A stretch of DNA of 64,000 nucleotides from a virus (IMGVR_UViG_3300005077_000712:25209-89208), one strand, 5' to 3'. Numbered from the stretch's first letter, positions 6,260 through 17,222 are shown. Notes: generated by a model from the letters alone, not told the origin. Numbers and translations: made by a program.

Positions 6260-6748
6260 TTAATTTCCTTTTAATTTAATAAATTTTCCATTATTTGTTT
6301 CACTAAACCTTTTTAATTCAGTTTTTGCAAAATCACCATAAGCAATTAAAACCGATGGAGCATTTGCAGAATCACCTTTTCTCCCATCAACATAATGGAA
6401 AGCAAGTCTACCTTTGAAAAAGAAAACTGCATCTGCTCTATCCCACACTTCAGAATGAAAACCTTTTGTTTCAGTTCTTGCAAAAGTTAAAGCAATACAA
6501 TTATTATGTTCATGACATTTTTTTAACCAAATATATGTTTCTCTACCATATGGAGGATTACAAAAAACAAATCCTTCCCAAACTTGAATTAAACCGTTAT
6601 TATTTATATTGAAATGTTTTTTAGCAGTATCCCACGGTCTACTTATTGGGCTACATGGATCTAAATCGAAACTAAAAAAATCAGTAATATATTTAGGTGT
6701 AAGCCATTCATCATTATTTTTTGTATTTGTATTAAAACTATTACTCAT
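6260..6748 (-). CDS. Phage N6-adenine DNA methyltransferase (Dam family)
   Basis: DEWLTP, FDLDPC, VFCNPPYG. Confidence 0.88.
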   Translation of the reverse strand: MSNSFNTNTKNNDEWLTPKYITDFFSFDLDPCSPISRPWDTAKKHFNINNNGLIQVWEGFVFCNPPYGRETYIWLKKCHEHNNCIALTFARTETKGFHSEVWDRADAVFFFKGRLAFHYVDGRKGDSANAPSVLIAYGDFAKTELKRFSETNNGKFIKLKGN

Positions 6749-7065
6749 TTATTTTCCTTTAAATAATATTCTCTATATTCTGATAATATAGATTCTAAAT
6801 TACATAAAACACATGGGCATGAATCTTTAGTACAATCACCAGAATGAATTGGTTTTTTATCTTCTAAAAGACTTCTGATAAAAAGTCTTACATTAGCAAT
6901 AATATCATCATATTCACGATCATACCATTCAAACAAATTATATTTATCTTTATGTAAATTATCATTTTTATAATACTCTGTCAAGTTATTATTTTTATCT
7001 ATAATACCCGCATCTTGTAATTCTTTAAGTGCAAGAACTTGAGAAGATGATAATTTTTTTACCAT
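6745..7065 (-). CDS. Hypothetical protein
   Basis: 106-aa ORF with CxxxxCxCxxC. Confidence 0.55.
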   Translation of the reverse strand: MVKKLSSSQVLALKELQDAGIIDKNNNLTEYYKNDNLHKDKYNLFEWYDREYDDIIANVRLFIRSLLEDKKPIHSGDCTKDSCPCVLCNLESILSEYREYYLKENK

Positions 7066-7106
7066 AATTTTTTAAATCTTTAATTAGTTTTTTATTACTC
7101 ATCATC

Positions 7107-7454
7107 CTATTCTTCCTTTAAATATTTAATTTCATCTTCTTCACAAGCAATAATTTTATATTCTATAGCCTTAATAAAACTTTGATTAACAATATCAATC
7201 ACTATTTTATCTATCTGCATATTAGTCAATCTATTTTTATAATATTTACCTCTTTGAGAAATAACATATTCAAATGTTTCTGGATTACACCCTCCTCCAA
7301 ATGTAGCATTATTAGAATCAATTATACTACATATCTCATCTATAAAACAATCCATTTGTTTATTAGATAAAATAGTTTCAAAAGTTCCTTTAATAGCTAT
7401 ATAAGGTTCAAAAAATTCTTTTATTCTTAATTTTTTTCTCAATCTCTTTTTCAC
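7107..7454 (-). CDS. yggL: YggL (DUF469)-like 50S ribosome-binding protein
   Basis: GTG start. MKKRLRKKLRIKEF...FIDE...FGGG resembles YggL RRLRKKMHIDEF...FINE...FDGSG. Confidence 0.75.
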   Translation of the reverse strand: MKKRLRKKLRIKEFFEPYIAIKGTFETILSNKQMDCFIDEICSIIDSNNATFGGGCNPETFEYVISQRGKYYKNRLTNMQIDKIVIDIVNQSFIKAIEYKIIACEEDEIKYLKEE

Positions 7455-7507
7455 TTGTAAGTTCCTTTTAAAAAGATTATACGCACTTCTTATAATTACT
7501 GTTATGG

Positions 7508-7723
7508 CTAATTGCCTTTTAACTTCTCCAATCGCTGAATCATTATCGCTCTGTATTTATTTGCACCTTCAATCGCTCTTACTGTCTTTATGTTGCAATA
7601 TGGTAGGTTTGTGCTTCTGTCTGTAAACCACTCATCAACTTCCTGTTCGGTAGGCAACATAGCCATAACATCGGTTATATTCAATACCTTGCTTTCGTCT
7701 TGTTTTTTAGTTTTGTTTTTCAT
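7508..7723 (-). CDS. Cassette ORF, hypothetical
   Basis: Starts inside attC 7663-7794 and reads through the core as LNITDVMAM. Confidence 0.7.
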   Translation of the reverse strand: MKNKTKKQDESKVLNITDVMAMLPTEQEVDEWFTDRSTNLPYCNIKTVRAIEGANKYRAIMIQRLEKLKGN

Positions 7724-7794
7724 ATCAAGTTTTTTTTATTATTCAAAATTTGTGTTTCAAAATCGGCACTAAATATAGCCGAGAAACGTTAGGC
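7663..7794. other. attC-like site 1
   Basis: Minus strand: GCCTAAC GTTTC TCGGCTATATTTAGT...ATTGAATATAACCGA T GTTATGG. Confidence 0.8.
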
Positions 7795-8058
7795 GACATG
7801 CAACCTTAATCTATACATAATATCTATAAATTTGACAAGATTTTCCGTGCTTAAAAACTTAATCGGAATTTCTCCAGCATCATACATTTTTACTATTTCC
7901 CGCACGTCTCCTAACACGGCATTTGAGTCCGCTTCGCACATTGCCTCAATTATTACATCAGCTAAAAATCCGAACACTTTCGGCGGTATTTCCTGAATGT
8001 TACCATCACCGTCATTTGCAAAATTTTTTATTATATTTAATAACTTTTCTCTATACAT
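7789..8058 (-). CDS. Cassette ORF, hypothetical
   Basis: Starts in the loop of attC site 2, crosses the core as SNAVLGDVR, stop is the TAA of GCCTAAC. Confidence 0.7.
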   Translation of the reverse strand: MYREKLLNIIKNFANDGDGNIQEIPPKVFGFLADVIIEAMCEADSNAVLGDVREIVKMYDAGEIPIKFLSTENLVKFIDIMYRLRLHVA

Positions 8059-8109
8059 AACTTTCTTCTGTTAATTCGGCAACGTCTCAAATGCCGGGTA
8101 ATGTTGTAC
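7909..8109. other. attC-like site 2 (long, coding loop)
   Basis: Minus strand: GTACAAC ATTACC CGGCATTTGAG...CTCAAATGCCG T GTTAGGA; 11-bp perfect arms. Confidence 0.8.
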
Positions 8110-8110
8110 G

Positions 8111-8392
8111 TCATTTGAGCTTTGCCCACTTTGTAATATTCTTAAACGGCTCAAACCGTGAATTATCAAAACAATACATTCCTGCACACAAATAAACCAC
8201 TGGTCCACCCTCATCACATACCCATGCTTCAACGGTAAACTTTGACATCGCACATCCACCAATTCCCCCTCTCGGACCAGCTGTAGACCCGAATGTTTCT
8301 GGATAAGCATAATAATCTAAATCCATATACTCGACTTTTCGATCCTTAAGTATATCAATAACTTCTTGCGGTGGTTTGTTTTGATAATTCAC
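8111..8392 (-). CDS. Cassette ORF, hypothetical
   Basis: 93 aa (YPETFGSTAGPRGGIGG); AGGAG RBS. Confidence 0.7.
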   Translation of the reverse strand: MNYQNKPPQEVIDILKDRKVEYMDLDYYAYPETFGSTAGPRGGIGGCAMSKFTVEAWVCDEGGPVVYLCAGMYCFDNSRFEPFKNITKWAKLK

Positions 8393-8437
8393 GGCCTTTC
8401 TCCTTTCATGTATTTTATTCTGTGACGCTCAAACGAC

Positions 8438-8518
8438 GCACAACACTCGCTAAACGCTTCGCTTCGCTCGGCCTTCGGCACATGGCTTCGCCACGTCGTT
8501 TAGCTCTGCATGTTGTAC
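8438..8518. other. attC-like site 3
   Basis: Minus strand: GTACAAC ATGCAGA GCTAAACG...CGTTTAGC GAGT GTTGTGC. Confidence 0.85.
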
Positions 8519-8531
8519 GAAAGACGCACGA

Positions 8532-8732
8532 CTAATACTCTATTGGTTCATCCTTGTATTCATAAGTGTAATTACCGGTTCCCGTCCCGCTCGTTGTTAA
8601 TACGCTATGAAGTGCCTCATGCCCGCAAATAACACATCGCTTGAATGACGAGTCTCCGTGCCATACATGTTCAGGTTCTACGGTTGACCCACATTTTTTA
8701 CACTTATAACTTTGTTCAATCTTTATATACAT
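8532..8732 (-). CDS. Cassette ORF, small zinc-ribbon protein
   Basis: CKKC...CVIC; AGGAGG RBS. Confidence 0.7.
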   Translation of the reverse strand: MYIKIEQSYKCKKCGSTVEPEHVWHGDSSFKRCVICGHEALHSVLTTSGTGTGNYTYEYKDEPIEY

Positions 8733-8756
8733 AAATCCTCCTTTCGTGCGTCCTTC

Positions 8757-8847
8757 GTACAACAAAGCGTGAAACGAAAAACGACTTTATTTTATTTACA
8801 ACACTTTTACTATTCAGCGTTCTTCGTTTACGCTTGAATAGTTAGCG
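8757..8847. other. attC-like site 4
   Basis: Minus strand: CGCTAAC TATTCA AGCGTAAACG...CGTTTCACGCT TT GTTGTAC; one extrahelical base. Confidence 0.85.
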
Positions 8848-9071
8848 AACATTGCCATCGACTTGTTGCTTGTACCAATCCGCTCCCTCGCAAAATATGT
8901 GCATAGAAATACTTTCCTCAACGCCATATCTTTTGGCCAGCCACTGATATTTTTAATACGTTGTTTATTCAAATCCCCCGCATAATGGTCGGGCAACGAT
9001 CCGCTAACACGGCGTAAAACGAAAGCCGTCTTTATTATCTCAATTATCTTTCTGTACCATGTAGTTTTCAT
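8814..9071 (-). CDS. Cassette ORF, hypothetical
   Basis: AGGAG RBS and ATG inside attC site 5; crosses the core as LRRVSGSL. Confidence 0.65.
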   Translation of the reverse strand: MKTTWYRKIIEIIKTAFVLRRVSGSLPDHYAGDLNKQRIKNISGWPKDMALRKVFLCTYFARERIGTSNKSMAMFANYSSVNEER

Positions 9072-9125
9072 CTTGATTAAACTCCTTGTATTATCGGCCT
9101 ATCGTTTACGCCGGAATAGTTAGGC
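9002..9125. other. attC-like site 5
   Basis: Minus strand: GCCTAAC TATTC CGGCGTAAA...TTTACGCCG T GTTAGCG. Confidence 0.8.
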
Positions 9126-9326
9126 GACATTGCCAAACCCTTTTATGTATTTAATACATTCTTGGAATCCAGCCACAAAATATACTTGTTCCTTTTCTGA
9201 TATATTTAGTCCCTCGCTTATTCTTACTGCAATACCACCTGCTTCATAAATATTTGGCAACGGTCGCCTAACAGGGCGTATATTCAATTTCGCCCTTATT
9301 GCGTTAGTAGTATTACTTGACCTCAT
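9120..9326 (-). CDS. Cassette ORF, hypothetical
   Basis: Starts in attC site 6, crosses the core as NIRPVRRPL, stop is the TAA of the core. Confidence 0.65.
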   Translation of the reverse strand: MRSSNTTNAIRAKLNIRPVRRPLPNIYEAGGIAVRISEGLNISEKEQVYFVAGFQECIKYIKGFGNVA

Positions 9327-9392
9327 AAACTTATCCCTTTAATATGATTATTTCTATCATGCGAAACTAAACATACGCCCCATCAGTTATAT
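9266..9392. other. attC-like site 6
   Basis: Minus strand: ATATAAC TGATG GGGCGTATGTTTAGTTTCGC...GCGAAATTGAATATACGCCC T GTTAGGC; 20-bp stem with 3 G-T pairs. Confidence 0.85.
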
Positions 9393-9400
9393 GACATGGC

Positions 9401-9940
9401 TTAACTCTGGCTCGCCTTCCGTGGCTCGCTTTTTATTATCCTATCAAAACATATTTGTTTCGGCAATAAACCTCTACAAATATAAACACTCGAAAACGGA
9501 GGATTCAAACTCGGTTTTTGTTCTGTATAATCTTTAAAATATGCCACCCTTTTATTAAAATAAAGTATTTCAAAATCATTTGCTTCAAACATAGAAAATC
9601 TTTTTTCAGACTCGAATAATCCTACAACTCCAACAAGCATAGCAAATTTTTTATTCAACTTAAACAGTCTATCAAATACTTCGCCTTTTAAACTATAAGG
9701 AGGATTTGAAATAATAACATCACAATCAATATCAATATTAAAAAAATCATCACCGTTTGAAATATGCGTATTTTTTACGGCATTGCCATTATTCTTTAGC
9801 ATCTTTACAAAGTTACTTTCGTTCGTATCAAATGGACACCATACTGCTAAATTTGAATTTACATATTTCAATAAAGGCTCAATAGCATATTCAGGTGTAT
9901 AAAATTCATCCTGTTTTTTTGTAATTAAGTCAAGTTTCAT
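9401..9940 (-). CDS. Adenine-specific methyltransferase carried as a cassette
   Basis: DEFYTP, VWCPFD, IISNPPYS; GGAGAG RBS before MKLD. Confidence 0.8.
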   Translation of the reverse strand: MKLDLITKKQDEFYTPEYAIEPLLKYVNSNLAVWCPFDTNESNFVKMLKNNGNAVKNTHISNGDDFFNIDIDCDVIISNPPYSLKGEVFDRLFKLNKKFAMLVGVVGLFESEKRFSMFEANDFEILYFNKRVAYFKDYTEQKPSLNPPFSSVYICRGLLPKQICFDRIIKSEPRKASQS

Positions 9941-10007
9941 AAACTCTCCATACGTGTTCGGCATCCTGCCTCACACTAAATATATTTTTTGTTACAATCG
10001 CCACGTC

Positions 10008-10073
10008 ATATAACAACGGGTAAGCGTTCGCTTCACACACCCTTCGGGTGTCGCTTACCCTGTTCAGTTGTAC
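10008..10073. other. attC-like site 7
   Basis: Minus strand: GTACAAC TGAACA GGGTAAGCG ACACCCGAAGGGTGT...CGCTTACCC GTT GTTATAT. Confidence 0.85.
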
Positions 10074-10083
10074 GAAAGACGGC

Positions 10084-10290
10084 TTAACCCCCACCATAAA
10101 CATAAAAACCTTCTGCATCTTTAATCTCTCTCGGCTCAAGCGATAAATCAGCATGGGTATATCCCAACTTTTCAAGAACAAGTTTTCTCGCTTGCTCTGA
10201 ATTTTCAGCATATGCGAAGGCTATGCCTGCTGTATAATCTCTTAATACATTTTCCCATACATATAATTTTAATTTACTTATTGCTTCCAT
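10084..10290 (-). CDS. Cassette ORF, hypothetical
   Basis: 68 aa; GAGG RBS. Confidence 0.7.
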   Translation of the reverse strand: MEAISKLKLYVWENVLRDYTAGIAFAYAENSEQARKLVLEKLGYTHADLSLEPREIKDAEGFYVYGGG

Positions 10291-10348
10291 ACTAAATTAC
10301 CTCACTTTATATTTTACTTTCAATGCGTATTCTCATAGCCTTGAATAG

Positions 10349-10618
10349 TTAGCTAAAATGCTCGCTAACTTCTGCCATTTCAATATCATATTCTAATTCC
10401 ATTTGCTTAGCTCCATACCCATTAGACATCCAGTCTATAATATCTGTAAGTTTAGAAACTCTTTCTCGCAATGCTCGCACTTCAGCTAACACGGTGTCAT
10501 GCGTCATTGATTCCCTACATTTATTACAATATATAATTCCTATTGGATCACCATAATCTTTTCCACATTTAACATAATCGCTATGACAATATCTTAATAA
10601 GGCACCACATCCCTTCAT
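10349..10618 (-). CDS. Cassette ORF, Cys-containing hypothetical
   Basis: GGGAGG RBS and first ~43 codons lie inside the attC-like site at 10484-10666; crosses the core as HDTVLAEVRA; stop is the TAA of the core. Confidence 0.7.
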   Translation of the reverse strand: MKGCGALLRYCHSDYVKCGKDYGDPIGIIYCNKCRESMTHDTVLAEVRALRERVSKLTDIIDWMSNGYGAKQMELEYDIEMAEVSEHFS

Positions 10619-10666
10619 AATATCCTCCCTTGAATATCAACGACGCATACGCAGTCTCAGTTAGGC
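10484..10666. other. attC-like site 8 (long, coding loop)
   Basis: Minus strand: GCCTAAC TGAGA CTGCGTATGCGTC...GACGCATGACACCG T GTTAGCT. Confidence 0.75.
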
Positions 10667-10675
10667 GAAAGACGG

Positions 10676-10912
10676 CTAAACCTTTCGTATTTCAAAATTT
10701 ATTATCGAATATTTAAAATAAGCAATAAACAGTCTATATAATGCTATTATCAATAATTCTGTACTATAGATTCTCCACCCCGGATCGCCAATGTTTACAC
10801 ATAAAACTTGATATTTCCATCCATAACTTTCTCCTTTTAGTCGCCGTCCTTCGCCCAACACTCGGCAAACGCCATGAGTACACAGCGTCTGCCTCAGCAT
10901 GTTAGCAGCCAT
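10676..10912 (-). CDS. Cassette ORF, small membrane protein; start uncertain
   Basis: Open frame GWKYQVLCVNIGDPGW...; the AGGAG-preceded ATG near 10822 is one base out of frame. Confidence 0.4.
   Translation of the reverse strand: MAANMLRQTLCTHGVCRVLGEGRRLKGESYGWKYQVLCVNIGDPGWRIYSTELLIIALYRLFIAYFKYSIINFEIRKV
10853..10907. other. attC-like site 9 (short)
   Basis: Minus strand: TGCTAAC ATGCTGA GGCAGACGC...GCGTTTGCC GAGT GTTGGGC. Confidence 0.75.
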
Positions 10913-11144
10913 TTAAGACAAAAAACTTTTTAGCCTTATCTCTGAACTTGCCAACTCCAGATAATCTTACCATAAAATCATCACCTATGGCTTCAATAAA
11001 CTCACCTTCTTTTAAGTGTGGTTCATCTCCAATCGCACTTTCATAAATCGGATAGAATAAACGGCTGCTAACAGCAGGTATATTCAATGCCGAGCATCGA
11101 GTGTAATCAGAGTTTAGTTTTTCAATCAAGCCTTGTGTTGTCAT
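10902..11144 (-). CDS. Cassette ORF, hypothetical
   Basis: Starts in attC site 10, crosses the core as LNIPAVSSR, stop is the TAA of the core. Confidence 0.7.
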   Translation of the reverse strand: MTTQGLIEKLNSDYTRCSALNIPAVSSRLFYPIYESAIGDEPHLKEGEFIEAIGDDFMVRLSGVGKFRDKAKKFFVLNGC

Positions 11145-11205
11145 ATAATTTTGTATTTCAAATTTGGCACTAAATATACCTGCTCATACGCTTAAAAAGT
11201 TAGCA
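11066..11205. other. attC-like site 10 (same family as site 1)
   Basis: Minus strand: TGCTAAC...AGCAGGTATATTTAGTGCC...GGCATTGAATATACCTGCT GTTAGCA. Confidence 0.8.
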
Positions 11206-11216
11206 GAAATAACCGC

Positions 11217-11396
11217 CTAATCTTTAGTGATAATCTTATATGTATAGTAATCACTATCTTTAAACATATTCATTCTATTCTTATATAAATCTTTTAAAGA
11301 TTGCTCAACTCTTTCTTTTGCTTTCTTGCCACGAAATATTTTATATAATTTATATTCATCAAATGGATTTACTCGTCTTAATATTCTATACTCCAT
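11217..11396 (-). CDS. Cassette ORF, basic hypothetical
   Basis: MEYRILRR... after AAGGAGG. Confidence 0.65.
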   Translation of the reverse strand: MEYRILRRVNPFDEYKLYKIFRGKKAKERVEQSLKDLYKNRMNMFKDSDYYTYKIITKD

Positions 11397-11425
11397 ATAC
11401 TCCCTCCTTTGATGGCGGTTACATC

Positions 11426-11479
11426 CGCTAACATCGAGCAAGCGACATTGAAACGATCACCTACCTTTTTTAGTTAGAC
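11426..11479. other. attC-like site 11 (short)
   Basis: Minus strand: GTCTAAC TAAAAAA GGTAGGTGA...TCGCTTGCT CGAT GTTAGCG. Confidence 0.75.
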
Positions 11480-11483
11480 GTAA

Positions 11484-11651
11484 TTATTCGCCAACTTTTT
11501 CTGATGATTTAGCTCCACCGCACATCCCCATTATCATTGATAATTGTCCTATCATCTGCAATCCAAGTTCTTCATGACTTTTACTTTTCGGTATGCTATT
11601 TATTGCACACTCGCATAACTCAATTATTTTATCATATACATCATCTTTCAT
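11484..11651 (-). CDS. Cassette ORF, hypothetical
   Basis: MKDDVY... after AGGAGG. Confidence 0.65.
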   Translation of the reverse strand: MKDDVYDKIIELCECAINSIPKSKSHEELGLQMIGQLSMIMGMCGGAKSSEKVGE

Positions 11652-11684
11652 TTTAATCCTCCTGTAATAATGGCGAATAACTAC

Positions 11685-11738
11685 GCCTAACATCGGGCAA
11701 GCGACATTAAAACGGTCGCCTGCTCTGTTTAGTTAGGC
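11685..11738. other. attC-like site 12 (same family as site 11)
   Basis: Minus strand: GCCTAAC TAAACA GAGCAGGCGAC CGTTTTAAT GTCGCTTGCCC GAT GTTAGGC. Confidence 0.8.
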
Positions 11739-12209
11739 GAAACGGCTTAAAAATATTTCCATCATTTTGACCGCCTCTTCTCTATCACTGTTTTTTTCTC
11801 CCTCTGATAAATATTTATATTCTGTTTTCATTTGTCTTTTCCATCTATCAACTGCCCACTTCGGAATAACTAAATTTTTCTCTCCGTCTGGTTCTGCTAA
11901 TGTTGGCTCAAGATAAATCTCATAGCACTTGCTAAATAAATACTGCATCCATCCAGACTATTGACTATGCGCAAATGCGGCCAGCTCCTCTTTTAGTTCA
12001 GCCGTATCGCATAACACAGCATTAGACGAAAGAGGCTTTTCGCATTCTACCGCTTTATCCAGTATCCTATTCAATGGATCAGAATAATCTTTATTTTTTA
12101 AATACTCTATATCTTTCTCCATCCTTTCTATTCTCTCTGTTAACGCTCGCACTTCAGCTAACAGAGATATTTGATATAATTTTAAAATAGATTCTCTCAA
12201 ATCATCCAT
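11733..12209 (-). pseudogene. Chimeric cassette ORF interrupted by an in-frame TAG (11958-11960)
   Basis: ORFs 11958-12266 and 11733-11948 are in the same frame: ...AAFAHSQ*SGWMQYLFSKC...; the TAG sits where the family motif HxQWSGWM has Trp (TGG). Confidence 0.65.
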
Positions 12210-12252
12210 ATATTCCCTCCTCAAATTTTCGCATATTCTCAATATGTTGTAC
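12156..12252. other. attC-like site 13 (coding loop)
   Basis: Minus strand: GTACAAC ATATT GAGAATATGCGA...TCAAATATCTC T GTTAGCT. Confidence 0.7.
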
Positions 12253-12262
12253 GAAAGACTGC

Positions 12263-12433
12263 TCAATCTTTTTTATATTTTAATTCTAACTCTTTATAAA
12301 AACTACATATTGCACAACAATCTAACCCACAATCACAAAATGTTCGTTTGCCAGTTTTAATATATTCTTCTTCAATCCAATCTTGATAACAAGCCCAACA
12401 TTCTCCGTGTCCACAACCGCATCTCTTTTCCAT
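12263..12433 (-). CDS. Cassette ORF, 56-aa Cys-rich protein
   Basis: MEKRCGCGHGECWAC...CDCGLDCCAIC; AAGGGGG RBS; not in the ORF track. Confidence 0.65.
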   Translation of the reverse strand: MEKRCGCGHGECWACYQDWIEEEYIKTGKRTFCDCGLDCCAICSFYKELELKYKKD

Positions 12434-12463
12434 TAGCTAACCCCCTTCTATTCGTTGCCCTTC

Positions 12464-12531
12464 GTACAACACTTGCTAAATGCCACTTCGCTACATGGCT
12501 TTGATACGTTGTTTAGCTCTGCATGTTGTGC
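12464..12531. other. attC-like site 14 (same family as site 3)
   Basis: Minus strand: GCACAAC ATGCAGA GCTAAAC...CATTTAGC AAGT GTTGTAC. Confidence 0.85.
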
Positions 12532-12542
12532 GAAATTGCGCC

Positions 12543-12884
12543 TCACTCACTGCTCTTAAAATCTTCTTCTGGACTAAACCAATCGTTGTTAACGATATGA
12601 CCTATCGCATGCACCTTGCTATGCTCGCACTTTACCCGTATTGTTTTACCCTTCAACTGACTCCATTTTGAAACTTCCGCTATCTGCATTACCCTGAAAA
12701 TAAAATGTCCCGCTACAGACTCTAACTTGTAGTGCGTAAAGCTTTTCGGCAAATATAGCGCATACCCTCCAAACCCCTGACCGATCCCGCCATAATTAAG
12801 ATTCACCCACGCAGACAGACACCCGTGGTCATCATTTGTAATTTCCGCTGACTCAATAATCGCATTTCTGATTTCTAATTCCAT
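12543..12884 (-). CDS. Cassette ORF, conserved phage hypothetical
   Basis: NAIIESA...DHGCLSAWVNLNYGGIGQGFGGY; AGGAG RBS. Confidence 0.7.
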   Translation of the reverse strand: MELEIRNAIIESAEITNDDHGCLSAWVNLNYGGIGQGFGGYALYLPKSFTHYKLESVAGHFIFRVMQIAEVSKWSQLKGKTIRVKCEHSKVHAIGHIVNNDWFSPEEDFKSSE

Positions 12885-12929
12885 TTCTAATCTCCTATTA
12901 ATTAAGCAACGCCTCAAATACCATCTCTG

Positions 12930-13568
12930 TTAGTCGGCATTGCTTAAATATTTTTCTAATTCTTTTTCAAGTGCTATTACAATTCTCTCCAAACTTGCTC
13001 TGGTATGCTCCCTGAAATTATCTTCTCGTAACAGTATTTTCATTGTATCAAGTTGAGTCATAAGATGGATAAAATCAACTTGTTCTATCAAAACTTTGCC
13101 TAATAAAGAATCATGAGTTTCAGCTTTCGGCAAATTTTGAGGAATTACTTTATTTATTAAATCTTCTATTCGCTGACATAGTTCTGGTCTATTATCAGCA
13201 TAATCTTCCAAAAGTCCATTTACAATAATTTTTGATACTTCTCTTGAATCTATTTTTTTATCCCCTCTTCTATACTCGTTTAAAAAATCATAGACATCTG
13301 ACATTGATTCAAACTGTTTATGATAATCTTTAAATTTTTCATTAAAAGAATTTAATTGATCTTTTTCACATTGTTTTTCAAATTCAGGATCTTCAAGTTT
13401 TTTAGTATAAAAATCTGTTAGTCCACTACATATACCACATCCACCGTCACCATATTTCCCATGTTCGCACCAACCATTATCTGTTGATAAATCTTTTTCC
13501 TCTTGCATTGCTTTATCTATTCCTTTTTGAACTTTAGATTTATCATATTTTAAATCTTCTATTTTCAT
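12930..13568 (-). CDS. Hypothetical protein; its stop is part of the last attC half site
   Basis: 212-aa ORF ending GCC GAC TAA C. Confidence 0.65.
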   Translation of the reverse strand: MKIEDLKYDKSKVQKGIDKAMQEEKDLSTDNGWCEHGKYGDGGCGICSGLTDFYTKKLEDPEFEKQCEKDQLNSFNEKFKDYHKQFESMSDVYDFLNEYRRGDKKIDSREVSKIIVNGLLEDYADNRPELCQRIEDLINKVIPQNLPKAETHDSLLGKVLIEQVDFIHLMTQLDTMKILLREDNFREHTRASLERIVIALEKELEKYLSNAD

Positions 13569-13572
13569 TTCT

Positions 13573-14661
13573 TTATTGCTTCTCTTCTTTCAATAAAAAT
13601 TCAGGATTAATTACTTTAAAACTTGTAAATGGAAGATCTATACTCCTAAACACAAGCCCTTCTCTATCTTTAAGAGTATTAAGGACACTCTTTCCATAAC
13701 TTTCTTTTACAACACTATTTACATCAGAAAAAATAAATTTTTTTGTATCAATAATTGGAACAAGTTTTAAACCTGTTTCGTCTATAAATCTAATAATTTC
13801 ATTATATTGAAAATATTCATTTTTGTCAATATTAAATACATTAAATATATAGAACTCATTTTCTTTTAACTCATAAGGATTACCTTGAATCTTTGGCCCA
13901 ATAATTTCACCTTGAATGGCAATATTCATTTTATGCTTTTTACTATATTCTTTAAGAATAAAATCAATATTATATTTTTTAGCTATATTAAAATAAGCAT
14001 TATCTTTACTATTTGAAAGATTAATATTTCTTGAAGCAAATCCAAATTTACCTTTATTAAACCAAAAAGAAGAACTCATACCATCAAGTTTTTCAGTTAA
14101 ATAAAATACCCTGTTCTGATTATTCCATATAATAGATGGAATAGATTGTATTCTTGTTTCATCAGTTTTTCTAATAAATGATGGGAATCCCTTCTCTTTA
14201 TCCTCAAAAAATTTAAAATAAATTGTTCTAAATACTTTAAACTTAAAAAAGAATTTAAAGAGTTTAGATTTCTTATGATTAGTATTAAAAGCTGTTTGTT
14301 CTTCAACTAATTGAGGATCATATTTTTTAATACCAAGTATATCAGTAATATCAACACCTTCTTTAGCAACTATTTTAAAGCCACTATCTCTTAATGATTG
14401 AATAGGAATTATAAGTCCCTGACTGATCTGACCACGAAGTTTAATTATTCTAACACGATATTTTCTTTCTTCAAGAAATTCAAACATAGGTATTTGAGGG
14501 ACTATAGAATCAGTCTCCATATAGCAAACAAGATCACCAACATTAAATTCACCTTTTTTAACTACAACTTCCCATCCAAGGACTTGAGCTACTTCAATTT
14601 TATCTGCTCCTTCAATTGGACGTATTGATATTATTTTTTGTATGGTTGCTAATTGTCTCAT
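13573..14661 (-). CDS. RNA ligase, DRB0094 family
   Basis: MRQLATIQKI...IEGADKIE...KLRGQISQGL, TEKLDG, QGEIIG, REGLV. Confidence 0.9.
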   Translation of the reverse strand: MRQLATIQKIISIRPIEGADKIEVAQVLGWEVVVKKGEFNVGDLVCYMETDSIVPQIPMFEFLEERKYRVRIIKLRGQISQGLIIPIQSLRDSGFKIVAKEGVDITDILGIKKYDPQLVEEQTAFNTNHKKSKLFKFFFKFKVFRTIYFKFFEDKEKGFPSFIRKTDETRIQSIPSIIWNNQNRVFYLTEKLDGMSSSFWFNKGKFGFASRNINLSNSKDNAYFNIAKKYNIDFILKEYSKKHKMNIAIQGEIIGPKIQGNPYELKENEFYIFNVFNIDKNEYFQYNEIIRFIDETGLKLVPIIDTKKFIFSDVNSVVKESYGKSVLNTLKDREGLVFRSIDLPFTSFKVINPEFLLKEEKQ

Positions 14662-14663
14662 TT

Positions 14664-15017
14664 TTATACCTCATTTATTATTTCATTTGCAATTAATAAT
14701 GCACATTGTTCACATCTTGTTACTAAATCAATTTTTGATTTATTTATATCAACTTTATACTTTCTTTGGTATTCTGATAAATAAGAAATATCAGGGATTA
14801 TATAAGGACTTTTATGATTCATTCCTCTTCTTAACATTTCTTCTGCTAATTCATCATGTCTTGTTTGCATTGATTCAGGCTCAATTTGACCTAATTCAAT
14901 TCTTTTATTTATAGAGTGCTTTTTCTCGAAGTTATGCTTATGTTTATGAATTTCTCCATGTTCACCAATGAGATGTTTATTACAAAGTAATTTTGGGTCT
15001 ACCATCCACATTCTCAT
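14664..15017 (-). CDS. denV: Pyrimidine-dimer DNA glycosylase (endonuclease V)
   Basis: MRMWMVDPKLLCNKHLIGEHGEIH...RHDELAEEMLRRGMNH. Confidence 0.85.
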   Translation of the reverse strand: MRMWMVDPKLLCNKHLIGEHGEIHKHKHNFEKKHSINKRIELGQIEPESMQTRHDELAEEMLRRGMNHKSPYIIPDISYLSEYQRKYKVDINKSKIDLVTRCEQCALLIANEIINEV

Positions 15018-16890
15018 TTATTCCTAACCTATCCTCAATAATTTTACAATATTCTTCACTTAATTCACAACCAATTGCATTTCTATTTAATTCCTTTGCA
15101 ACAACTAATGTAGTACCTGCACCTGCAAATGGGTCAAGAATTGTATCATCTATATATGAAAACATTTTTATACATCTTTTTGCAAGTTCTTTTGGAAACA
15201 TTGCAGGATGCCCAATTTTTTTCATCTGTGTCTCAGGTGGAAATTTCCACAAAGCTAATGACCAATCTATAAATTCTTCTTTAGTTAAATCAGTTTCACC
15301 TTTTCTGTTTAACTTCTTATCTTCTTTTGCAAATACTAATATATGCTCAAAAGGTGTTGGAAAGGATGGGCAAGATGGCGACATAAATGAACCCCAGGAA
15401 CAATTATGGAATATTACTTTACCACTATAACTTTCATCTTCTTCTACTTGCAAATTGCAAACATCAATGTTTTCCACATATTCTTTTGTAATTTCTTTTA
15501 TTTTATAAAAGCCATAATGACTTCCTATTTTGCTTTTATTATATCTATATTTAAAATTATTATTTATATCTTCATTTAAGACATTTTTTTTTATTTTATC
15601 AATAAATTTTCCATATATTCGTAACACATAAGCATCACTATTACCTTTTATAATTCTTCCACTTTGTAACATTGTATCTCTATTATTTTTTTTATAAACA
15701 GAAGATAATATTTTAAGTCTTAATAAAATATCTCTTATTTGGTAACATAGTTCTTTAGAAATGGAAACATAACCAACTTCTGTTTCACTAATATACCCAT
15801 CACTTCTTATTAATCCTTTTATTAATTGTTTTTGTAAAAAAAATGGTGCTTGAAATAAAAATGGATGTATCTTTTTATTTTTTGCTAATTTACCACCTAA
15901 AACTTCTAAAATTTTAGGCAAAACTTTTTTTGATGATATACAAATACGATTTAAATTTTCTCTTTTTTCATAAAAAAAACTCCAATTAAATTCTTTACAA
16001 ATATTTTCAACATCTTTACAATAATTCGTTTCATTTAGACCAAAATCTATTCTTATTGTTGTATCTTTATGCGTAGATCCATCACCTATATAATAACCTA
16101 ATAATCTAAAAAAACCTTCAGAGTAATAATTTATTTTTTCGTTAGTTATTTTAGATAATCGTTCATTAAAATTTTCAACATTCCCATGATATTGAGTTGT
16201 ATATTTTGGAACTATTGCATACCACTCACCGTTATTATATAATTCTTCTGGAGTTTTCCACAAAAAATTCCAATTTACTCTTTTTTTTGGAGTATATTTT
16301 CCACATCTTCTTTCTAATGGGGAAACATAAATTTTATGACCTTCAGTTAATACAATATCTTCTCCAAAACTTGATTTTATCTTATAAATAAACCCACTAT
16401 ATTTATTTCTAAATATATTTTCAACTTTTTTAAATCTTCTATTATGAGTTAAAACTTTATCACCAATTTTTATATTTTGTATTTCTATATAACCATTATC
16501 TGTATTTATCAATTCATCAGGTAATAAACACCTATTCCCAACTTGAGACTTTTCCCATATAATATGTGTCATTGGTATATATGTTAAATTAACCATAAAT
16601 TGAATTATATCAGAACTAGTCGGGACTCCACCGTTGCGGCCATCACCAATATTTATAACTACACGACCACCTTTAACAAGTTTCATATATATAAGAAAAA
16701 ATATAGATTTAAGCCAATTAATATATTCTTTATGGTCTTTATTATCATTATAAAGATTATAAGGATTTTTATTATATTTATTATTTCCTAAATCAACATT
16801 GTATGGTGGAGATGTAACAACTAAATGCACACTATCATCTTGAATAGTGTGCAAAGTTTTAAAGCAATCTCCTTGTAATATTTGTATCAT
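14980..16890 (-). CDS. N4-C/N6-A DNA methyltransferase containing an intein
   Basis: VVTSPPYN; HPAMFP...ILDPFAGAGTT; probable start MIQILQGD. Confidence 0.9.
   Translation of the reverse strand: MIQILQGDCFKTLHTIQDDSVHLVVTSPPYNVDLGNNKYNKNPYNLYNDNKDHKEYINWLKSIFFLIYMKLVKGGRVVINIGDGRNGGVPTSSDIIQFMVNLTYIPMTHIIWEKSQVGNRCLLPDELINTDNGYIEIQNIKIGDKVLTHNRRFKKVENIFRNKYSGFIYKIKSSFGEDIVLTEGHKIYVSPLERRCGKYTPKKRVNWNFLWKTPEELYNNGEWYAIVPKYTTQYHGNVENFNERLSKITNEKINYYSEGFFRLLGYYIGDGSTHKDTTIRIDFGLNETNYCKDVENICKEFNWSFFYEKRENLNRICISSKKVLPKILEVLGGKLAKNKKIHPFLFQAPFFLQKQLIKGLIRSDGYISETEVGYVSISKELCYQIRDILLRLKILSSVYKKNNRDTMLQSGRIIKGNSDAYVLRIYGKFIDKIKKNVLNEDINNNFKYRYNKSKIGSHYGFYKIKEITKEYVENIDVCNLQVEEDESYSGKVIFHNCSWGSFMSPSCPSFPTPFEHILVFAKEDKKLNRKGETDLTKEEFIDWSLALWKFPPETQMKKIGHPAMFPKELAKRCIKMFSYIDDTILDPFAGAGTTLVVAKELNRNAIGCELSEEYCKIIEDRLGINENVDGRPKITL
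15403..16530 (-). mobile_element. Intein with LAGLIDADG endonuclease (376 aa)
   Basis: N-terminus CLLPDELI, block B LTEGH, LLGYYIGDG and IKGLIRSDG, C-terminal HN followed by Cys+1. Confidence 0.9.
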
Positions 16891-17222
16891 TTTGCAAAAT
16901 TCCATTTACTTGAATAATCTATAGTTTCGTATTCACCAAGTTTTATTTCTTGATTTATATTTTGTAAAACTATTTGTAACGCTATTTTTGTTTCTAAATG
17001 CAATTTATCTAATTCTTTTTCCTGTTCTTCTGTAAGATCGCTATCATCATCTTTTGATCTCAATTCAAGTATTTCAGCTATATCTCTAATAACATCAGAA
17101 TTACCATAAGGACGTTTACAATTTATTGAAGGCGCACCATATTCACAGTCCCACCAACTTACATACATATTTCTTAATAGTATAAGATGTTCTTCTCTTA
17201 AAATAAATGTTTTTTTATTCAT
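16887..17222 (-). CDS. Conserved phage hypothetical protein
   Basis: CKRPYGNSDV; probable start MNKK (the track start lies inside a terminator hairpin). Confidence 0.65.
   Translation of the reverse strand: MNKKTFILREEHLILLRNMYVSWWDCEYGAPSINCKRPYGNSDVIRDIAEILELRSKDDDSDLTEEQEKELDKLHLETKIALQIVLQNINQEIKLGEYETIDYSSKWNFAK

Follow-up and report, generated by a model that had tools for sequence, protein, structure and literature searches.

A probable integron-type cassette array in a T4-like or jumbo phage, with unit ends that pair well beyond the attC core

We analyzed a stretch of viral DNA of 64,000 nucleotides (hereafter the window), which comprises bases 25209-89208 of the 89-kb IMG/VR virus record IMGVR_UViG_3300005077_000712 (CheckV completeness about 41%). 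At 7501-12527 it contains a row of about 14 small units with 36% GC. These units probably constitute an integron-type cassette array, that is, a cluster of attC-like sites with no integrase nearby, and were once circles that entered at a GTT/AAC core. It is well established that arrays have chimeric attC sites, since cassettes insert as circles (Cury et al. 2016, PMC4889954), and clusters of attachment sites are published for virulent phages, with IntI1 recombining them in an assay (Qi et al. 2023, PMC9892861). The general principle is known already; what is new is an outer helix that is extended, covaries and is conserved, along with framed cassettes that seem restricted to phages.

Each unit is composed of a segment (S) and a hairpin (H). 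The first-pass annotation had noticed that the bases after the GTT at one end of a segment are nearly the reverse complement of the bases before the AAC at its own other end. We saw this at all 14 coordinate pairs, as inverted repeats of 13-22 bp, and reproduced the match counts given for the imperfect ones (S3, 16/18; S7, 14/15; S10, 14/15; S12, 19/21; S13, 14/16). A blind scan for end pairs over 6500-16000, with a threshold of 11/15 positions, recovered 12 of the 14 pairs and four more, namely three AT-rich chance pairs and 10067/10859, whose arm is of the same family. In an all-against-all comparison, the anchored extension score averaged 10.0 for own ends and 2.1 for non-own ends; beyond the 7-bp core it was 6.9 against 1.7 for other pairings. 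None of 100,000 permutations of partners reached the observed sum, for whole arms and beyond the core alike. The proposition that own ends pair no better than random ones was tested in this way, beyond-core score included, and does not hold. The pairs 10490/10348, 12470/12246 and 9008/8841 are the weakest. Loose own-end pairs also arise by chance elsewhere in the AT-rich DNA (51 in 84 kb), all AT-rich and none tiled; the statistical weight rests on the permutation tests and not on this genome-wide scan.

Folding gave the same picture. With DNA energy parameters, the arms of own ends reached -13.6 kcal/mol (plus strand) and -15.3 kcal/mol (minus strand), those of linear neighbours -5.1 and -5.9 kcal/mol, and none of 20,000 permutations was as low as the own ends. 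When the cassettes were circularised in silico and folded with their real hairpins, as the first-pass annotation had proposed, the circles came to -22.1 to -25.6 kcal/mol; with the real hairpins likewise in place, linear sites came to -14.0 and -16.0 kcal/mol and shuffled ends to -14.4 and -16.1 kcal/mol.

Moreover, the place where the match changes is exact. Core positions 4-7 are complementary at 50 of 56 own-end positions versus 25 of 52 neighbour positions, and the change from matching the neighbour to matching the own other end falls right at the invariant GTT/AAC triplet. Positions 4-7 and those beyond follow the own other end and not the neighbour, as in attC sites made chimeric by a crossover at G|TT. 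The disagreement of the outer arms within a linear site, which had been read as the trace of split circles, is indeed the expected footprint of circles inserted by a crossover at the core. Since own ends match, neighbours disagree and the switch lies exactly at GTT/AAC, we infer that the units were once circular and were inserted at the core. Two sites had to be revised, because 10014-10348 and 12015-12246, taken earlier as single sites, are composite or decayed: the former combines a true site (10014-10067) with a segment that has a half site, and the latter is a decayed site.

Terminal inverted repeats of 13-22 bp, with arm families kept around varied cargo, could also belong to small non-autonomous transposons that insert into palindromic targets. 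This seems very improbable to us, as target-site duplications are absent, the units follow one another head to tail, each separated from the next by an attC-like hairpin, and no transposase was found (the Y1, serine and tyrosine families were all negative on the record). The units of the probable integron-type array are as follows, with the hairpin classes given as letters; ORF stands for open reading frame.

7462-7500, minus strand: fixed array flank in an attI-like position; it adjoins the array, and its promoter-like TATAAT box faces the YggL-like gene at 7107-7454
7501-7787, minus strand: cassette 1, S1 7501-7669 and H1 7670-7787 (class C); ORF start 7723 in the loop; a 1x2 loop interrupts the 16-bp own-end helix at position 11
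7788-8102, minus strand: cassette 2, S2 7788-7915 and long hairpin H2 7916-8102; own-end helix 13 bp, inner stem 11 bp; ORF 8058 to 7789 begins in the loop and continues across the core, with no homologues found
8103-8511, minus strand: cassette 3, S3 8103-8444 and H3 8445-8511 (class A); 18-bp helix; S3 ORF of 93 aa with its own ribosome-binding site
8512-8840, minus strand: cassette 4, S4 8512-8763 and H4 8764-8840 (class B); own-end helix 20 bp, the most stable (-22.8 kcal/mol); S4 ORF of 66 aa, a zinc ribbon by a weak match to Pfam Zn_ribbon_8
8841-9118, minus strand: cassette 5, S5 8841-9008 and H5 9009-9118 (class B); ORF start 9071 in the loop; helix with a 1x2 loop at position 11; 5' arm of S5 recurs in contig L013
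9119-9385, minus strand: cassette 6, S6 9119-9272 and H6 9273-9385 (class C); ORF start 9326 in the loop; own-end helix of 18 bp with a 1x2 loop
9386-10066, minus strand: cassette 7, the largest, S7 9386-10014 and hairpin 10015-10066 (class E, found in contig L034 too); 15-bp helix; orphan DNA adenine methyltransferase of 187 aa at 9401-9964 (minus strand; Pfam EcoRI_methylase and Dam)
10067-10347, minus strand: incomplete unit with a 68-aa ORF and a GTT arm that belongs to the S4/S9/S14 family, without an AAC partner of its own and with only half a class B hairpin (about 10320-10347)
10348-10659, minus strand: cassette 8, S8 10348-10490 and long hairpin H8 10491-10659; weak helix of 14-16 bp; ORF 10618 to 10349 joins a loop-encoded zinc ribbon to a segment-encoded coiled-coil module
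10660-10900, minus strand: cassette 9, S9 10660-10859 and H9 10860-10900 (class A); 17-bp helix
10901-11198, minus strand: cassette 10, S10 10901-11072 and H10 11073-11198 (class C); ORF start 11144 in the loop; own-end helix 15 bp
11199-11472, minus strand: cassette 11, S11 11199-11432 and H11 11433-11472 (decayed class D); 18-bp helix
11473-11731, minus strand: cassette 12, S12 11473-11691 and H12 11692-11731 (class D); 21-bp helix
11732-12245, minus strand: cassette 13, S13 11732-12015 (14 of 16 helix positions pair) and a composite decayed site 12016-12245, which includes the 3' arm of class F, an S8-type arm inside the site that ends at 12164, and a module with a ribosome-binding site
12246-12526, minus strand: cassette 14, S14 12246-12470 and H14 12471-12526 (class A); helix 14 bp, weak past position 14
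12527-12917, minus strand: S15 cassette remnant with a 124-aa ORF, higher GC and a typical GTT arm; no AAC partner lies in the window, while the same arm family has both arms in contigs L034 and L035

Between the S15 ORF and the gene for a 212-aa protein, 12897-12945 forms an 8-bp stem with a 30-nt loop that contains TAAC and GTT motifs, and this may be a decayed site marking the former right end of the array.

The hairpins between the segments are attC-like. They have a closing helix from AAC to GTT, a very variable loop and, in 11 sites, an inner stem of 8-20 bp and unpaired spacers of unequal length (4-8 nt versus 0-5 nt on the coding strand). Over 5 kb there are 11 well-folded and three decayed sites of this kind in one orientation, and they fall into at least five sequence classes with two or three copies each. 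If these sites count as attC, the array is a CALIN (an attC-site cluster without an integron integrase), which is defined by at least two co-oriented attC sites with no intI nearby. The GTT and AAC triplets are invariant (14/14), position 4 is always a purine, and eight sites have lengths of 54-140 nt. A search of 6500-15500 against Rfam returned no match.

In a textbook attC, with its classical element R''-L''-L'-R', the own ends pair over 7 bp. As controls we took the class 1 cassettes blaIMP-1, aac(6')-IIc and dfrA14, whose own-end complementarity is 8, 7 and 8 bp and then ceases. The outer helix here measures 13-22 bp, two to three times the textbook length, and continues for 6-15 bp beyond the core, so the earlier statement that pairing goes well past the 7-bp core was correct. 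This family of phage cassettes has a recombination site that exceeds the classical one in length. A full-text literature search on extended helices at attC ends returned nothing relevant, which is weak evidence of novelty.

The helix also has a conserved defect. Read on the coding strand, 10 of the 14 window cassettes have a G at position 11 of the 5' arm, with T as its partner; among the remaining ones, three have a 1x2 loop and one an A-T pair. The same G·T was seen in 18/18 further cassettes from ten other contigs, giving 28 of 32 from 11 contigs. All 18 outer-helix wobbles are G·T if the coding strand is read and would be A·C mismatches on the other strand, and the T is in the 3' arm every time; in the inner hairpin arms 13 wobbles are on the coding strand versus three on the other. 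Such a distribution indicates that the coding strand is under selection to fold, either as single-stranded DNA or as RNA.

A rival reading is that these are RNA elements, in which the ends of a cistron pair within the polycistronic transcript and act with the inner hairpins to process or stabilise it (RNase III type) or to tune translation. The wobbles are compatible with this (31 are G·U-compatible on the transcribed sense strand versus three on the other), as are the ribosome-binding site right after the 5' arm in seven cassettes and the greater stability of the minus-strand folds. However, RNA function leaves unexplained why homology blocks between contigs are bounded by GTT and AAC, why neighbours differ, why the AAC/GTT cores are invariant and why arrays end precisely at a core; moreover, pairing across 130-630 nt is less likely than local folding. 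As the sole explanation it is unlikely, although an RNA role is compatible with recombination and both may coexist.

Comparison with related contigs supports the description of the units as shuffled, because the same end pairs and cassettes stand beside different neighbours in L005, L014 and L032-L037. A homologue of S3 with 80% protein identity and the same arms lies in a different array in L005. (The hairpins flanking it there were first taken as unrelated, but alignment puts them in the same broad hairpin class.) Nearly identical copies of the S12 arm pair, along with its ribosome-binding site and final five or six codons, are present in L014 (viral) and in L032 and L033 (metagenome), and the ORFs enclosed are unrelated (BLASTP E = 11 between the window and L014). 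These cargos, at 11484-11693 in the window, 1613-1795 in L014, 1365-1625 in L032 and 613-986 in L033, differ in length, and that of L033 holds two ORFs. The final codons and the stop come from the conserved 3' arm, so that these unrelated proteins have the same last five or six residues (..KVGE, then stop). The arm pair of S8 recurs in L009, L011/L012, L013 and L014 around no fewer than three different interiors. An S8-type cassette in L014 has an S12-type one after it, unlike the order in the window, and an S11-type arm comes after an S12-type cassette in L032, L033 and the window, with different hairpins in between. Class F hairpins with S13-type segments occur also in L037.

In most cases the homology blocks between contigs begin or end at most 4 nt from GTT or AAC. 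Blocks of arm plus ribosome-binding site, 33-41 nt long, are nearly identical between contigs, and in seven cassettes the ribosome-binding site directly follows the 5' arm. Arrays of the same build are present in the viral contigs L034, L035 and L037, which have 40-51% GC. Two 19-20-mers from the arms had no exact match in 185,579 prokaryote genomes (one per species) and matched only viral or metagenome contigs; the cassette pool appears to be confined to phages and apart from that of sequenced bacteria. A 19-mer of the class A site had no viral match, and a 17-mer of the left junction had 18, only that in L014 being real. We set aside L002-L004, which carry S3 protein homologues, and L010, with a homologue of the zinc ribbon, since these are ordinary phage genomes without sites.

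Modular shuffling mediated by promoter/stem-loop motifs (PeSLs) in T4-type phages was reportedly described by Arbiol et al. in 2010. A similar process, homologous recombination between short conserved linkers, could shuffle genes here, the arms being the shared linkers. The T4-like phage, the lack of any site-specific recombinase found, the nearly identical blocks of 33-41 nt and the documented PeSL minicircles (PMC4122927) would fit. At the junctions, however, neighbouring units have only the 3-nt core in common, so that nothing homologous is there to recombine; the unit ends are inverted and not direct repeats, the hairpins are of at least five classes, and promoter-like and terminator-like sites are not enriched (25 found versus 21.8 expected). 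We regard linker recombination as quite unlikely, and site-specific entry at the core remains the preferred explanation.

Some further observations concern the S8 type. The cassette 8 ORF (10349-10618, minus strand; 89 aa) is modular. Its C-terminal 47 residues are encoded by S8 and recur in other contigs at 70-76% identity behind different N-termini of 14-123 aa, and a protein in another phage, L010, ends with the loop-encoded zinc ribbon on its own. A paralogue in L012 has the same N-terminal part and another C-terminus, with the same joining point. At 1560-1810 of L012 (29% GC, phage-like) there is a relic cassette that keeps both 17-bp arms and the G/A difference at position 11; its GTT core has decayed to AAT, and there is neither a hairpin nor a GTT after the AAC. 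Arms can thus outlive sites. In L011 (3633-4883) an IS605-type OrfB/TnpB gene lies directly upstream of an S8-type gene, which is probably a coincidence.

The units can be divided in two ways, with the hairpin after the gene (segment + hairpin, the classical layout) or with the hairpin before it (hairpin + downstream gene, the reversed layout), and the own-end finding is unaffected by this choice. We lean slightly towards the reversed layout, in which the genes are antisense to the classical orientation; the classical arrangement of a gene on the top strand with attC downstream does not seem to apply here. First, the arrays of the window, L014, L034 and L035 all begin with a hairpin and end, at the side towards which the genes point, at a segment AAC that directly adjoins non-array DNA. 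The array flank of 43 nt has 91% identity in the viral contig L014, where it follows a different last cassette, and such a common flank is expected of a fixed insertion point. Second, seven ORFs start in long hairpin loops (7723, 8058, 9071, 9326, 10618, 11144 and about 12212) and read through the core, and only a unit made of the hairpin together with the segment downstream leaves them intact; where a segment has a ribosome-binding site of its own, the hairpin before it is short. Third, the block of H12 and the S12 5' arm is shared with L032 at 96% identity for 78 nt, ending at the GTT at 11732; a class F hairpin stands before an S8-type segment in three contigs and before an S13-type one in two; and the folding strand is the coding strand. 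On the other side, the direct repeats D1, D5 and D6 cross the GTT on the plus strand, a class F hairpin pairs with two segment types, and most known cassettes have the classical layout.

Two side observations belong here. Translation of the loop-start ORFs (7663-12252) crosses the inner arm, the core and the 5' arm; the three class C hairpins share one frame (xLNIxxV), and in another group the crossover is read as xxG|TTA (V/L then L). At the end of the array, a promoter-like site (7476-7505, minus strand) spans the array boundary, with its TATAAT in the shared flank and its -35-like hexamer partly built from the core of the last cassette; L014 has the same arrangement.

Several results weigh against an integron-type array. 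The whole 89-kb record has no match to TIGR02249 or PF00589 and does not hold a complete integron, and no tyrosine recombinase was found on six other viral records with such cassettes, one of which is 92% complete. Just 3-5 of the 14 cores agree strictly with the full consensus (RYYYAAC / GTTRRRY), the inner stem shows no clear extrahelical base, and the sites other than the eight mentioned above are 183-244 nt long. In addition, the wobble bias towards the coding strand could stem from RNA folding and not from the recombining DNA strand. A serine recombinase and a Y1 transposase are likewise lacking on the record. As the record covers only about 41% of the genome, it does not follow that the phage itself has no integrase; our best guess is that a host integron integrase acts in trans or that a recombinase is encoded in the missing 59%.

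The array is set among accessory genes of a low-GC T4-like or jumbo phage of virulent type. The window has 25% GC as a whole, with 23-28% throughout except at 8-14 kb (32-37%). On the left of the array are genes for RNA ligase 1, polynucleotide kinase/phosphatase, a Dam methylase and the YggL-like protein, and on the right genes for an RNA ligase 2-type enzyme and an intein-bearing methyltransferase; all array ORFs and flanking phage genes are carried by the minus strand. The DNA methyltransferase gene at 14980-16905 (minus strand) is split by an intein with a LAGLIDADG endonuclease domain, according to Pfam matches. Looking for synteny, we found no relative of the neighbouring RNA ligase with more than 50% identity among 5.8 billion proteins, and L001, the sole viral locus found in a search for close phage relatives, lacks the array.

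We propose that a circle enters by a site-specific crossover at GTT/AAC, which splits the folded site so that its halves now flank the gene. The helix bearing the crossover runs 6-15 bp past the core with its conserved defect at position 11. This outer helix can form only in the circle and makes the circle site about 8-10 kcal/mol more stable than the linear hybrid sites, and the greater stability would favour capture and retention over loss. In classical attC sites, extrahelical bases help the choice of strand. The G·T, one helical turn from the crossover, would keep the helix continuous on the coding strand and leave it broken (A·C) on the other, and could help to choose the strand in a similar way.

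A wider proposal, which we put forward tentatively and with more doubt than the array itself, is a phage-specific branch of integrons. It would have a pool shared among unrelated phages (25-51% GC, 33 kb to jumbo), a third, outer helix with G·T marking the folding strand, frames that receive unrelated genes, and genes assembled from loop and segment, with no recombinase on seven viral records. If this is true, the frames would be the first visible intermediate of cassette genesis. A long, covarying helix that exists only in the circle and is conserved in phages would offer a simple and testable reason for capture to beat excision, and recurrent framed ends around unrelated genes give a handle on cassette genesis. 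The array also adds to the evidence that virulent phages hold and exchange cassettes; the cargo here is mostly small proteins plus a methyltransferase of the kind that phages use against restriction.

Comparison with known systems places these features. The pdif modules of Acinetobacter plasmids have XerC/D sites in alternating orientation, with half sites that travel with the module. They are similar in that the two ends of a module are inverted copies of each other; here, however, the half sites are separated by a hairpin of 40-230 nt and a dif-like site of 11-6-11 form is absent. PeSLs join a sigma-70-type early promoter to a terminator stem-loop, lie around genes as direct repeats and are used by homologous recombination (Comeau et al. 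2014, PMC4122927). As in our array, the genes concerned are small orphans in a plastic part of a T4-like genome and are proposed to move as minicircles, whereas here the ends are unit-specific inverted repeats, the exchange occurs at a 3-nt core and the array does not qualify as a PeSL system. Sedentary chromosomal integrons, such as those with the Vibrio cholerae repeats, also have long attC-type sites, homogeneous and conserved as families, with unrelated cargo, but a single array here combines about a dozen arm families with hairpins of at least five classes and has no known integrase or attI, and we know of no description of an outer helix split across the cassette in those integrons.

The closest systems are integron cassettes and CALINs, including those of virulent phages (PMC9892861). 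In common are the small, mostly promoter-less genes, the folding sites with ...AAC and GTT... cores, the chimeric array sites in which the ends of each cassette match each other, and, with the published phage CALINs (PMC9892861), a cassette for an orphan DNA methyltransferase. In contrast, the crossover helix here is 13-22 bp and not 7 bp with a conserved G·T at position 11, the genes appear to be antisense to the classical orientation and seven of them start in the loop of the site, the array has 14 cassettes from a pool that seems phage-confined, and frames of arm plus ribosome-binding site are conserved around unrelated genes.

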